A DNA stretch of 64,000 nucleotides from Bacillota bacterium (GCA_023435705.1 JAEYRH010000005.1:110114-174113); one strand, 5' to 3'. Positions 4,197 to 7,817 are shown, counted from the stretch's first letter. Notes: generated from the letters alone by a model not told the origin. A program made the numbers and translations.

Positions 4197-4481
4197 TTAG
4201 CAACAATCCCCGTCGTCGCAGCCGCAGCTTGGCTCCTTGCCGGTGAGCATTCCTTTGATGATCGCCGCGGCGCAGCCGACGCCCTGCTCCACGGTGATCG
4301 CGCCAAAGGCGCAGTTGCGGGCGCAAGCCCCGCACTCCATGCAGCGGTTGCGATCAGTGACCTGGGCCTTCTTGCCCTCCAGCCGGAAAACGCCATGGGG
4401 GCACACAGCAGCGCACACACCACAACCAGTGCACTTGGAGCGGTCATATTCCAGCGTTGCCACATTCTTCAAATACATCAT
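4197..4481 (-). CDS. hgcB: HgcB, 2x[4Fe-4S] ferredoxin of the mercury-methylation pair
   Basis: 94 aa with CTGCGVCAAVCP and CMECGACARNC clusters, GVGCAAAII, and a C-terminal SCGCDDGDCC vicinal-Cys tail. RBS GAGGAGG overlaps the hgcA stop, and the gene starts 12 nt after hgcA. Confidence 0.9.
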   Translation of the reverse strand: MMYLKNVATLEYDRSKCTGCGVCAAVCPHGVFRLEGKKAQVTDRNRCMECGACARNCAFGAITVEQGVGCAAAIIKGMLTGKEPSCGCDDGDCC

Positions 4482-4493
4482 GTCATGACCTCC

Positions 4494-5708
4494 TCAATGG
4501 AACAACACAACAAAATCCCCTACGATCAACAGGATCACACCCAACGCTGTCGCAATCAGCATCACCGGCAGCGCGATCCTCATTTCACGATCCACACCGG
4601 ACATCGACGTGAAAGTGGAGCTGCCTGTGAAGTTCATCGCGCCGTAAGCCGATAAGGACGGCAGCACGAGCAAATAGGCGATTGCCTTCATCCACGCCTC
4701 AAGCGACATTGGCGGCACCCAGCCCGCCAGCAGGATCACTCCAACCGCCCACAGCATGCCAACCAGCGCGCCTTTGAACGAGAATGCCCTTCCGGGGATC
4801 CATGGCAGGAGCACCGGCGTGAGCACGCAACCGGCAAGGACTGTTCCGAGATATGCCACAAGATCCATGAAGCCGAAATGCCCGAAGCCGATTGCGTTCA
4901 GGATGAACAGGATGCCAAACACAATCATCATGGGCTTCAGTGCCATCACGACTTCCAGCGGCGCGAGCACCAGCCGGTCCCACAGCGTGAAGCGGACCCT
5001 CCGCATTTCCTCTGAAGCCTTCATTCCGGCAGCCAGATATGCCTTCAGGTCCTCGGCCCGCACCGGCCCATAGGTCACTTTGAACCCGGTTTTCTTAGCA
5101 ACCTCGTGTGCAGCCACGCCCACCGCACCCAACTGGGGTAAGATTAGGGTCCGGTGGCTTACAATCTGCTTCAGGCGCGATTGGTCTATCCTGTGCACCA
5201 ACTCTTCTGTGCCGAATGTACCCTTCCCTGCCGCGCACCACACATTGATGCCCTTGGTATCAAGCACCAGGATCCAGGCATCTACACCTGGAAATTCCTT
5301 GCGAAGCCGGTCAAAGGTCATCTTGTAGTTGGCAGTCACCAGAACAGGTGATTTGTCATCGGGGCTGCCCACACAATACAAGCCTGGATCTACACTGTAA
5401 TCCATCCTGCCAATATTCCAGCGGGCCTTCCAGGAGCCCAGCATATCACCGGCTGACAACACAGTGCTCACTTTGGGCACCGGGCCAACCGGGGTATCCA
5501 CATACCCCGCAATCCATTTGTGCCGGCGTTCCACCTTGGTGTCACAGCTGCAGGCTTGTCCAACCTCTTTGGCATTGTTTACTGCGGTTTGCGCTGGGGC
5601 CGGGCAACAAGGTTCAGGGGTTTTTATAGCGGTTGGCGCGGCAGTTTGATTGCATCCGCATGGCTGCTTTCTCTTTCGCGGGGAACCGGAACAGCAGGAT
5701 TCGGGCAT
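4494..5708 (-). CDS. hgcA: HgcA, corrinoid-dependent mercury methyltransferase (membrane-anchored)
   Basis: Cap-helix signature GINVWCAAGKGTFG (NVWCAAGK codons at 5223-5246). Upstream core WIAGYVDTPVGPVPKVST...SPVLVTANYKMTFD and a C-terminal multi-TM domain. ATG at 5708 has RBS GAGGTG 6 nt upstream, so the ORF-track start at 5780 is probably too long. Confidence 0.9.
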   Translation of the reverse strand: MPESCCSGSPRKRKQPCGCNQTAAPTAIKTPEPCCPAPAQTAVNNAKEVGQACSCDTKVERRHKWIAGYVDTPVGPVPKVSTVLSAGDMLGSWKARWNIGRMDYSVDPGLYCVGSPDDKSPVLVTANYKMTFDRLRKEFPGVDAWILVLDTKGINVWCAAGKGTFGTEELVHRIDQSRLKQIVSHRTLILPQLGAVGVAAHEVAKKTGFKVTYGPVRAEDLKAYLAAGMKASEEMRRVRFTLWDRLVLAPLEVVMALKPMMIVFGILFILNAIGFGHFGFMDLVAYLGTVLAGCVLTPVLLPWIPGRAFSFKGALVGMLWAVGVILLAGWVPPMSLEAWMKAIAYLLVLPSLSAYGAMNFTGSSTFTSMSGVDREMRIALPVMLIATALGVILLIVGDFVVLFH

Positions 5709-5748
5709 TTTCTTCACCTCAGTTAAACAGTTCGCAAGATATTCAAAA

Positions 5749-5771
5749 GTACTTTTGTGTGGCAAAAGTAC
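5749..5771 (-). terminator. terminator-like hairpin between the structured leader and the hgcA RBS
   Basis: Minus-sense RNA GUACUUUUG-CCACA-CAAAAGUAC followed by UUUUGAAUAU. The 9-bp stem is AU-rich, so strength is modest. Confidence 0.4.
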
Positions 5772-5780
5772 CAAAACCAA

Positions 5781-5931
5781 CCGGGGGTGGCATGTTTCTG
5801 AGACCTCACCTCAAAGCCCAACGGGCGGGCCGAAGACAACTCCTCAGTCGCTAAGCTCCTTCGTCAAACAGTCTCTCGGCCTATTCGCCCTTATGGGCTT
5901 TTCGGCTGAGGGGAAACATGAAAACCCCCGG
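5781..5931 (-). promoter_or_regulatory. structured intergenic RNA element (unclassified leader/riboswitch-like) upstream of hgcA
   Basis: Closing helix CCGGGGGU-UUU-CAUGUUUC (5931-5913) pairs with GAAACAUG-CC-ACCCCCGG (5798-5781), 8+8 bp. Inner helix is 5827-5837/5871-5881. 5809-5819 and 5842-5847 compete for the same partner at 5895-5911. Confidence 0.45.
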
Positions 5932-5964
5932 ACCCCCAAAGAAACGAAAGGATAAATACGGAGG

Positions 5965-6375
5965 TTAGATCTCCCCAGCCTGCACCCTGCGCTTCAAATC
6001 CAACACCTTCTGCTCAATATCCCTGGCTGTTTCATCAAACAAGCTATCCGGCCCGCCGGTCGGATCAGCGAGCCCCCAATCCTCCCGGTGGCGGCTTGGC
6101 AGCCAGGGGCACTCCACGCCGCAGCCCATTGTCACGACGATGTCCACCGGTGGCAGCTCGCTTAGGATCTTAGGGTGCTGACCGGTTTCGGTCATATCCA
6201 CGCCGTAAAGCCTTTTCATCGCGCGCACGGCATCAGGATTGATCTGAGGCTTCAACTCTGTGCCGGCAGAGACAGCCTCAAACGCGTCTGCTGCATACAG
6301 CTTCGCCAATGCCTCAGCCATTTGTGACCGGCAGGAATTGTGTGTGCAGATGAAGGCAACGGTGGGCTTGCTCAT
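5965..6375 (-). CDS. arsC: arsenate reductase, LMW-PTP/thioredoxin-coupled type
   Basis: 136 aa with CX5R P-loop FICTHNSCRSQMAE, plus a downstream Cys pair in GCGVECPW. Confidence 0.88.
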   Translation of the reverse strand: MSKPTVAFICTHNSCRSQMAEALAKLYAADAFEAVSAGTELKPQINPDAVRAMKRLYGVDMTETGQHPKILSELPPVDIVVTMGCGVECPWLPSRHREDWGLADPTGGPDSLFDETARDIEQKVLDLKRRVQAGEI

Positions 6376-6400
6376 TGCGGGATCATCCTCCAGACTGGAT

Positions 6401-7459
6401 TCACTGGGACTCTTTAAACCAATGCCGCGTGTTGTTTGCGATGCGGACCAGCGTGAGCATTACGGGCACTTCCACCAGCACGCCTACGATGGTGGCCAGC
6501 GCCACCGGCGACGTCGGCCCAAACAAGGATATGGCAACCGCCACAGAAAGTTCAAAGAAGTTGGACGCCCCGATCATGCCGGCGGGGCAAGCAATGTCAT
6601 GGGGCAGCTTGAGTGCCTTGCCGGCAAGATAGGAGATAAAGAAGATCAGGAAGGTTTGCAGTGTCAACGGAATCGCAATCAGCACGATGTGGAGAGGGTT
6701 GTTTAGGATCACATCCCCCTGAAAGGAGAATATGATGACAAGTGTCAGCAGCAATCCAATCATGGTCACATTGTTGAATTTCGGGATAAATGTCTGATTG
6801 AAATACTCGGCGCCTTTCCTCCGCGTGACCAGCGTGCGGGTGAGGATGCCGCCCGCCAGGGGGATCACCACAAACAACACCACCGACAGCAGCAGTGTGT
6901 CCCACGGGATGGATATGCCGCCGATGCCCAGTAACAAAGCAACAATGGGAGTAAAGGCCACCAAGATGATCAAATCGTTGGTGGCGACTTGCACCAGGGT
7001 ATAGGCCGGATTGCCCTTTGTGAGGTGGCTCCACACAAACACCATGGCTGTGCACGGGGCTGCGCCCAGCAAGATCGCCCCTGCCAGATAATCCCTGGCA
7101 AGCTCAGCTGGGATCAGCGCCTTGAACACGATAAAGAAGAAGAATGCGGCAATGGCAAACATGGTGAAGGGCTTGATCAGCCAATTTGCCACCCACGTTA
7201 CAAACAAGCCCTTGGGATTTTTACCCACCTGCCGGATGCTGGCAAAATCCACCTTCATCATCATGGGGTAGATCATCAACCAGATCAGTATGGCGATGGG
7301 AATGGAAACATGCGCAACCTCAAACCGGCCCAAAAACGCCGGGATGCCGGCCAGAAACCTGCCGATCAGCACACCAGCCACCATGCAGAGCACCACCCAG
7401 ACAGTGAGGAACTTTTCAAAAAAACCAATGCCAACATTCTTCTCATTTACGGGGTCCAT
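6401..7459 (-). CDS. acr3: ACR3-family arsenite efflux transporter
   Basis: 352 aa from the ATG at 7459 (RBS AGGAGGG 8 nt upstream). About 10 TM segments and the conserved GAAPCTAMV motif. The upstream ORF-track extension overlaps arsR. Confidence 0.88.
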   Translation of the reverse strand: MDPVNEKNVGIGFFEKFLTVWVVLCMVAGVLIGRFLAGIPAFLGRFEVAHVSIPIAILIWLMIYPMMMKVDFASIRQVGKNPKGLFVTWVANWLIKPFTMFAIAAFFFFIVFKALIPAELARDYLAGAILLGAAPCTAMVFVWSHLTKGNPAYTLVQVATNDLIILVAFTPIVALLLGIGGISIPWDTLLLSVVLFVVIPLAGGILTRTLVTRRKGAEYFNQTFIPKFNNVTMIGLLLTLVIIFSFQGDVILNNPLHIVLIAIPLTLQTFLIFFISYLAGKALKLPHDIACPAGMIGASNFFELSVAVAISLFGPTSPVALATIVGVLVEVPVMLTLVRIANNTRHWFKESQ

Positions 7460-7817
7460 CGGTTGAGCCCTCCTTACGAATCGCCGGGCAGCAGCACGCT
7501 TTCTTGCGATCATCCGAGACTTTGCAGATGCACTGCTCCTTTTCACCGGTGAGCAGCTGCAGAAACCCAATGAAATCCTCCGCCCTTTTGCGGTTCAGCG
7601 AATAATACATCCACACGCCATCCCTGCGACCCACCACAAGCCCGCAGTCGGTGAGCACCTTCATGTGGTGCGACAACGTGGGCTGGGTGATGTGGAAATG
7701 CTCGAGCAACCGGCAGGCGCACAGCTCTCCACAGGAGAGCATATCCACGATGCCCAGGCGGTTGCGGTCTGACAAGGCTTTGAGGATGGCGATTTGTTCT
7801 TCTGATTTCAATATCAT
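7443..7817 (-). CDS. arsR: ArsR/SmtB-family metalloregulator with Cys-rich C-terminus
   Basis: 124 aa with wHTH LSDRNRLGIVDML, metal-site-like ELCACRL, QPTLSHHMKVL, and a C-terminal CICKVSDDRKKACCCP. It overlaps the acr3 start by 17 nt. Confidence 0.85.
   Translation of the reverse strand: MILKSEEQIAILKALSDRNRLGIVDMLSCGELCACRLLEHFHITQPTLSHHMKVLTDCGLVVGRRDGVWMYYSLNRKRAEDFIGFLQLLTGEKEQCICKVSDDRKKACCCPAIRKEGSTDGPRK

Follow-up and report, generated by a model that had tools for sequence, protein, structure and literature searches.

Is a pair of mercury-methylation genes that lies directly behind an arsenic-resistance (ars) operon transcribed together with that operon, or does it form a unit of its own? 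The question is raised by a stretch of 64,000 nucleotides (nt) from a Bacillota bacterium (GCA_023435705.1, JAEYRH010000005.1:110114-174113; the window hereafter), in which hgcA and hgcB follow arsR1, acr3 and an arsC-like gene. How hgcAB expression is controlled, and what the native role of the gene pair is, are questions in mercury biogeochemistry, and the link to arsenic is the leading hypothesis. HgcAB transfers a methyl group from methyl-Co(III) to Hg(II), and HgcB re-reduces the cobalt. Judged by profile scores and gene arrangement, hgcAB of the window is a bona fide pair at the 3' end of an ars operon of the canonical Gram-positive kind. As the best explanation of the locus we regard it as probable that this pair behaves as a semi-independent unit behind an inserted, terminator-like spacer.

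The gene map gave the 5' to 3' order arsR1, acr3, ArsC-like low-molecular-weight protein tyrosine phosphatase (LMW-PTP), hgcA and hgcB, all on the minus strand of the window, at the positions and on the common strand assigned in a preliminary description of this DNA. The genes arsR1 and acr3 overlap by 17 nt, whereas 25 nt separate acr3 from arsC, 256 nt arsC from hgcA, and 12 nt hgcA from hgcB. The features of the cluster are as follows.

7860-7893, minus strand: promoter-like site TTGACA-17-TATACT (11/12) with a palindrome, candidate ArsR1 operator
7443-7817, minus strand: arsR1, 124 amino acids (aa), ArsR/SmtB repressor (Pfam HTH_5, NF033788)
6401-7459, minus strand: acr3, 352 aa, arsenite efflux permease (TIGR00832), with the ATG start of the L001 gene call
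5965-6375, minus strand: ArsC-like LMW-PTP, 136 aa (Pfam LMWPc), with C10, R16, C85 and C89
5748-5947, minus strand: palindromic spacer element, a 153-nt hairpin and a 10-bp hairpin with U-rich tails
5736-5765, minus strand: weak promoter-like site TTGCCA-18-TATCTT (9/12, a match to the consensus only)
4494-5708, minus strand: hgcA, 404 aa, corrinoid protein (NF040863)
4197-4481, minus strand: hgcB, 94 aa, 2x[4Fe-4S] ferredoxin (NF040864)

Identification of HgcA and HgcB

HgcA scored 485.9 bits against the model NF040863 (HgcA_corrinoid; cut-off 275). With the paralog model NF043039 (HgcAB_like, fusion) it reached 218.6 bits, which is under the cut-off of 285, and with the equivalog model for the gamma subunit of the corrinoid iron-sulfur protein (CFeSP) it reached 80 bits, far under the cut-off of 306. 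A TTG at 5780 offers an alternative start, from which the protein would have 428 aa instead of the 404 aa from the ATG, and the NF040863 match extends to residue 423 of this 428-aa open reading frame (ORF). The cap helix NVWCAAGK occupies residues 155-162 (codons 5246-5223) with Cys158, and was invariant across an alignment of 16 HgcA sequences. Hydropathy analysis revealed 4-5 hydrophobic helices in the C-terminal part (residues 245-404). The corrinoid-binding domain is homologous to that of the CFeSP large subunit of the Wood-Ljungdahl pathway (PF03599; PDB 2h9a and 4c1n, E ~2e-10), but HgcA, unlike that subunit, has a cap helix with a Cys, a membrane domain and a ferredoxin of its own.

HgcB, the ferredoxin, scored 130.3 bits against NF040864 (cut-off 99). 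It carries two CX2CX2CX3C motifs (Cys 17/20/23/27 and 47/50/53/57), a mid-protein Cys70, and the tail SCGCDDGDCC, which ends in the pair Cys 93/94. A GGAGG stands immediately after the TGA of hgcA.

The preliminary description had named both proteins, and this profile check placed both above curated cut-offs, with the score of HgcA on the HgcAB-like paralog model under the cut-off of that model; the reservation that HgcA might fall under a trusted cut-off or prove a paralog did not apply at 485.9 against 275 bits. Its multi-helix membrane domain was recovered, as were the 94-aa hgcB product starting 12 nt downstream of hgcA with CMECGACARNC and SCGCDDGDCC, and the upstream motifs ELCACRL (ArsR), GAAPCTAMV (Acr3) and CTHNSCRS (LMW-PTP). 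For the cap helix the string GINVWCAAGK is present, but its 10 residues span 5252-5223; the codons 5246-5223 that had been assigned to it encode the 8 residues NVWCAAGK.

The N-terminal leader of HgcA is rich in cysteine (C5C6, C17xC19, C34C35 and C53xC55, within about the first 76 codons, 5708-5481) and precedes the region matched by the HgcA model. Leaders with CC, CCC or CxC were also present in HgcA of many phyla in the 80-locus set described below, and were missing in the short N-termini of the Desulfosporosinus/Desulfitobacterium type. A full-text literature search returned no paper discussing such leaders. The leader may serve as a thiol-rich capture site for Hg(II) or another metal.

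The arsR1-acr3-arsC operon and its candidate operator

ArsR1 scored 95.6 bits against NF033788 (cut-off 55), and its alpha-3 helix contains the Cys triad C29-x3-C33-x-C35 within LSCGELCACRL. It is 48-53% identical to the products of plasmid genes annotated as 'As(III)-sensing ArsR' in Staphylococcus, Listeria and Enterococcus. Acr3 scored 385.7 bits against TIGR00832 (cut-off 282.8) and carries GAAPCTAMV. The third protein matched Pfam LMWPc with 58.4 bits and has the CX5R P-loop CTHNSCRS. Its best solved relative is the arsenate reductase 3t38 (E 6.6e-20), with which it shares the aligned motif GCGxxCP and which, as the Corynebacterium enzyme, its CX3C pair C85/C89 resembles; the arsenate reductases 1jl3 and 2cd7 are further best solved relatives. 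We named the protein encoded at 5965-6375 ArsC-like because of its context and fold family. Its C85/C89 spacing differs from the C82/C89 spacing of pI258.

Inspection of the region upstream of arsR1 revealed a promoter-like site, TTGACA-17-TATACT at 7888-7860, that is near consensus (11/12). A perfect palindrome, CATTGA-N6-TCAATG (7873-7890), covers the −35 of this promoter and is the single perfect copy in the window; the promoter and palindrome are kept in the related locus L082. We propose the palindrome as a candidate ArsR1 operator. ArsR1 carries SCGELCAC and is similar to the plasmid As(III)-sensing ArsR proteins, and the ars module therefore resembles the usual Gram-positive operon with derepression by As(III), a mechanism that we extend to it from knowledge of the family. 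In this scheme ArsR1 would bind the palindrome, As(III) at the C29/C33/C35 site would release it, and ArsC would then reduce As(V) while Acr3 would export As(III).

The arrangement agrees with that of the Gram-positive arsR-(arsB/acr3)-arsC operons, such as the staphylococcal pI258 type and the Bacillus subtilis skin element, in the order of regulator, arsenite pump and LMW-PTP-type ArsC, in overlapping or tightly spaced genes, and in a palindrome over the promoter. Points of difference are that the pump is Acr3 and that hgcAB is appended downstream.

The spacer between arsC and hgcA

The 256-nt junction between arsC and hgcA is the part of the locus that bears directly on whether the ars promoter reads through into hgcAB. 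Folding of this region gave −107 kcal/mol over 276 nt (z = −4.25 against shuffles). Its core is an imperfect palindrome that forms a 153-nt hairpin (5932-5780, −79 kcal/mol) followed by UUGGUUUUGG, and a second hairpin of 10 bp (5772-5748, −10 kcal/mol) is followed by UUUUG. Inverted repeats of 16 nt flank the element. The weak promoter-like site TTGCCA-18-TATCTT overlaps the small hairpin, about 28 nt upstream of the hgcA ATG. With its hairpins and U-rich tails the spacer looks like a terminator. No copy of CATTGA-N6-TCAATG with up to 3 mismatches was found in 5709-5964, and a second ArsR1 operator before hgcA was accordingly rejected. Given a terminator-like spacer and no operator copy before hgcA, any ArsR1 control of hgcAB therefore needs read-through.

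Several other candidates for the spacer were discarded. A riboswitch or other known RNA, for example a cobalamin riboswitch, was rejected since an Rfam search of 3400-10300 on both strands gave no match at E<=1. A shared operator AAAGTACTTT, present upstream of hgcA (5746-5755) and of arsR2 (10024-10033), was also rejected: two matches are not above chance, being reached in 24 of 100 shuffles, and the copy upstream of arsR2 is not conserved in L082 or in a second related locus, L084. A multicopy repeat of the miniature inverted-repeat transposable element or repetitive extragenic palindromic type was unsupported, with no second copy in the window, in 87 fetched loci or in IMG/VR. An 18-nt core of the spacer was absent from IMG/VR. 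A 19-nt core matched one JGI metagenome contig, within a glycosidase coding region, and we took this match as chance. No recombinase gene adjoins the element.

The spacer in close relatives

An identical HgcA is on record in the NCBI/ENA contig and in the Logan assembly L001, whose gene order is the same as in the window. The loci L082 and L083 (GCA_023421955.1) encode an HgcA that is 87% identical, keep the gene order from the aldo-keto reductase (AKR) gene to the DUF6273 gene, and have a spacer of 260 nt. In L084 and L085 (GCA_023428265.1), where HgcA is 80% identical, the gap between arsC and hgcA is 38 nt and the spacer element is absent from L084. The spacer is considered an insertion relative to L084 because the gap there is only 38 nt. 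At 6684-8414, L084 also contains an extra arsR (153 aa), a second ArsP_1 permease and a Thioredoxin_3 (PF13192) gene, which sit between the first permease and acr3, all upstream of arsC-hgcA. A further locus, L087 (HgcA 73% identical), was discarded as evidence on ars linkage, its contig beginning 245 nt upstream of hgcA; the sequence there is unrelated and non-coding, with a long hairpin and T-tract of its own.

Comparison of the two spacers demonstrated that the L082 spacer (9742-9972) is the reverse complement of that of the window. A 65-nt core is 91% identical between the two, on the opposite strand only, and global alignment, which spans the long palindrome and the small hairpin, scored 189.5 in the reverse and 81 in the forward orientation. 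The hgcA-side hairpin of L082 retains pairing but not sequence, and in the L082 orientation neither hairpin has a U-tract after it. The two assemblies of each species agree in orientation (the window with L001, L082 with L083). Behind the difference may lie an inversion that became fixed, two separate insertions or an active switch. This palindromic spacer, inverted between close relatives, is the sole feature of the locus that we did not find described in the literature.

Survey of hgcA-positive genomes

GTDB species representatives were scanned with an HgcA alignment, which yielded at least 80 hgcA loci from Bacillota, Desulfobacterota, Planctomycetota, Aminicenantes and others; these were searched by tblastn with the window proteins, and all survey counts refer to them. 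Of the 73 loci whose upstream sequence is long enough, 24 have a same-strand ArsR-family gene no more than 500 nt before hgcA. The search for ars genes within 5 kb of hgcAB, which the preliminary description had suggested, found acr3 and/or an ArsC-like gene in 16 of 80 loci; 15 of these have them on the strand of hgcAB, and in 12 they are immediate same-strand neighbours at <300 nt. The ars matches are concentrated at hgcAB, because just two further loci have matches solely at 5-8 kb. The commonest order was arsR-hgcA-hgcB-acr3-arsC (9 loci, e.g. L004, L013, L014 and L033). As in the window, the ars genes stand before hgcA in L028 (Desulfitobacterium sp. THU1), L037, L046 and L052 (Desulfosporosinus sp. 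BG), with gaps of 73-142 nt in L052 and L046. Most of the hgcA-adjacent ArsR proteins have a conserved CxC pair, (S/C)GExCAC or ELCVC. The nearest named genomes among the matches listed were Eubacteriales, Clostridiaceae and Bacillota metagenome-assembled genomes, and the best of the matches listed reached 57% identity. The survey supports hgcAB as a recurrent member of ars operons in Bacillota, and membership is probably ancestral there.

Such an association has been reported before. Genes of the ars type flank hgcAB in metagenome-assembled methylators (McDaniel et al. 2020, mSystems, PMC7438021, Fig. 6) and in metagenomes of lakes and paddies (Peterson et al. 2025, PMC11984097, Fig. 4c; and a 2023 study in ISME Communications of rice paddies affected by mining, PMC10349881). 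In Pseudodesulfovibrio mercurii ND132 an ArsR-like regulator controls hgcAB, with a response to As(III) and As(V), and hgcAB shares its regulation with an arsR-acr3-arsC operon at another place in the genome; co-localisation of hgcAB with arsC, arsB and arsM in other genomes was noted in the same study (Gionfriddo et al. 2022/2023, 10.1101/2022.10.17.512643). The link is thus an existing, already published hypothesis, and the window is a further ars-linked hgcAB locus.

In the loci of McDaniel et al. and Peterson et al., acr3, arsC and a regulator of the ArsR type are immediate same-strand neighbours of hgcAB, an association that also appears in 16 of the 80 surveyed loci. The order arsR-acr3-arsC-[256 nt]-hgcA-hgcB of the window differs from the commonest order of the survey and is partly shared with L028, L037, L046 and L052. 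In the arsR2-hgcA-hgcB locus of ND132 (also Goni-Urriza 2020) hgcAB is preceded on its own strand by a regulator of the ArsR/SmtB family, as in the window, but no other ars genes adjoin hgcAB and the metal site of ArsR2 is described by the authors as atypical. The window, in contrast, has a classical As(III)-type SCGELCAC ArsR, with acr3, arsC and a structured spacer between the regulator and hgcA. An arsR directly upstream of hgcA was not found in the window, where arsR1 ends 1.7 kb upstream of hgcA.

Transcription of hgcAB

The explanation that we consider probable starts from ancestors of this Bacillota group in which hgcAB would have been integral to ars operons; in relatives with arsR-hgcA-hgcB-acr3-arsC or arsR-...-arsC-hgcA the gaps are 9-170 nt. 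A palindromic element of about 200 nt would later have been inserted between arsC and hgcA, in the window in the orientation that puts U-rich tracts 3' of both hairpins. Because U-rich tracts follow both, hgcAB, perhaps with the DUF6273 gene, most likely forms a semi-independent unit, with transcription expected from the weak spacer promoter and from As(III)-induced read-through that escapes the hairpins. Several observations weigh against this explanation. The spacer promoter matches the consensus at 9 of 12 positions only, and the region has 10 such matches where 5.0 +/- 2.7 are expected by chance. The 153-nt hairpin is atypical of an intrinsic terminator and was not called by a consensus terminator scan. 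The ArsC-like protein is under every curated ArsC equivalog cut-off (70-83 against 157-215 bits; TIGR02691 70.3/174.3, TIGR02689 71.0/157.6, NF010053 83/215). In addition, both mercury methylation by this uncultured lineage and transcription of hgcAB are deduced from sequence.

The preliminary description had raised the possibility that the ars operon and hgcAB make up one transcription unit or are jointly controlled. In its full form this reading is a single As(III)-inducible operon, arsR-acr3-arsC-hgcA-hgcB(-DUF6273), read from the arsR1 promoter; the spacer would then be an element of mRNA stability or processing, and arsenite would switch on the capacity for mercury methylation. All genes stand on one strand with no strong promoter before hgcA, related loci have ars-hgcA gaps as short as 38 nt (L084) or 73-142 nt (L052, L046), and in ND132 hgcAB is co-transcribed with arsR and induced by arsenic. 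We nevertheless find this operon doubtful, if distinctly possible. The 256-nt gap holds the −79 kcal/mol hairpin and a second one, each followed by a U-rich tract, whereas the remaining cluster junctions are 25 nt or less, and lake metatranscriptomes link the presence of arsR to lower, not higher, hgcA expression. Comparison with relatives supports the idea that ars genes and hgcAB belong together, but with the folded 256-nt spacer, and with the candidate operator at the arsR1 promoter only, a single transcription unit may be partly broken in this genome. Unlikely, in our estimate, is that the adjacency has no functional meaning and hgcAB simply sits in a metal-gene cluster, tied to arsenic neither by regulation nor by physiology. 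The two units may be completely separated by the spacer, 64 of the 80 surveyed loci have no acr3 or arsC within 5 kb, and archaeal hgcAB loci commonly have other candidate regulators in place of arsR. However, the 12 loci with directly adjacent, same-strand ars genes stand against two with matches solely at 5-8 kb, and we estimate that about 0.4 of 80 would be expected for 1-2 random ars loci in a genome of 3-4 Mb. The association also recurs across gene orders and phyla, and hgcAB responded to arsenic in the ND132 experiments.

The spacer could also act as a DNA-inversion switch or an orientation-dependent terminator, insulating hgcAB in the window orientation and letting transcription through in that of L082. 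Two genomes with 87% identical HgcA have the element at one and the same junction but in opposite orientations, its 65-nt core and the alignment scores agree on the reverse strand, 16-nt inverted repeats lie at its flanks, U-tracts stand 3' of the hairpins in the window orientation only, and it was not multicopy in any sequence searched. Yet the flipped segment includes the small hairpin, which lies outside the inner inverted repeats and would not be moved by simple recombination. Each species shows a single orientation in both assemblies, no recombinase gene is adjacent, and the data fit equally well with one ancient inversion that became fixed, or with two insertions that occurred independently. 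It is accordingly unlikely that such a terminator couples hgcAB to, or uncouples it from, the ars promoter, with arsenic-inducible methylation in L082 and insulation here.

A semi-independent hgcAB unit behind the inserted spacer is thus the reading we retain as probable. The locus alone leaves the current picture unchanged; it adds a clean example from an uncultured Clostridia-like Bacillota lineage with a classical As(III)-type ArsR. Its close relatives range from the 38-nt operon spacing to the structured 256-nt spacer, and such natural spacing variants are convenient material for the question of arsenite and mercury methylation in Clostridia-type methylators.

Genomic setting

Further features adjoin the cluster on either side.

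7976-9968, minus strand: upstream metal module (arsR2, ArsP_1-family permease, three Cys-rich ORFs)
7903-7958, minus strand: terminator-like hairpin with 12-bp GC-rich arms, followed by CATATTTTT
3558-4157, minus strand: DUF6273 gene (Pfam PF19789, 137 bits)

In the metal module, whose order is identical in L082 and L084, the second ArsR-family gene arsR2 (9968-9663) is followed by the permease gene (9575-8478), both on the minus strand; the permease carries a Cys-rich loop. The hairpin at 7903-7958 closes the arsR2-permease unit upstream of arsR1 and is kept in L082. Three small Cys-rich ORFs of 43-46 aa (8458-8327, 8285-8148 and 8116-7976, minus strand) lie 3' of the ArsP_1-type permease gene and are conserved at the protein level in L082 and L084. 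In two of the three a hydrophobic N-terminus precedes a common motif, [YF]C[KR][VL]EC..Y, and two of the three terminate in CC. The ORF at 8116-7976, scanned inside the longer ORF 8263-7976, gave no family match.

Between arsR2 and the divergent AKR/Fe-S oxidoreductase gene, the block GTATAAAACTTAAAGT[A/T]AACTTCAAGTCAAG at about 10070-10105 does not differ between the window, L082 and L084, in contrast to the variable intergenic sequence around it. Two ACTTnAAGT half-palindromes lie within this block, a probable binding site for a regulator.

On the other side, the DUF6273 gene begins 39 nt past hgcB with its own ribosome-binding site. It was also present 3' of hgcB in the fetched relatives L082, L084 and L087 (HgcA 73-87% identical), and the search of the other 80 surveyed hgcA loci did not find it; in this clade hgcAB and the DUF6273 gene may share a transcript. 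Downstream of the DUF6273 gene, eight tRNA genes form an array.

At 12300-22700 the window contains a low-GC island (40-45%), which was not at the corresponding place in L082. The island encodes a type I restriction-modification system (hsdR 13654-15978, hsdS 15981-17201, hsdM 17198-18652) and a tyrosine integrase (21215-22477) that adjoins tRNA-Arg (22607-22683). The ars-hgc cluster has a GC content of about 55%, the normal level of the genome.

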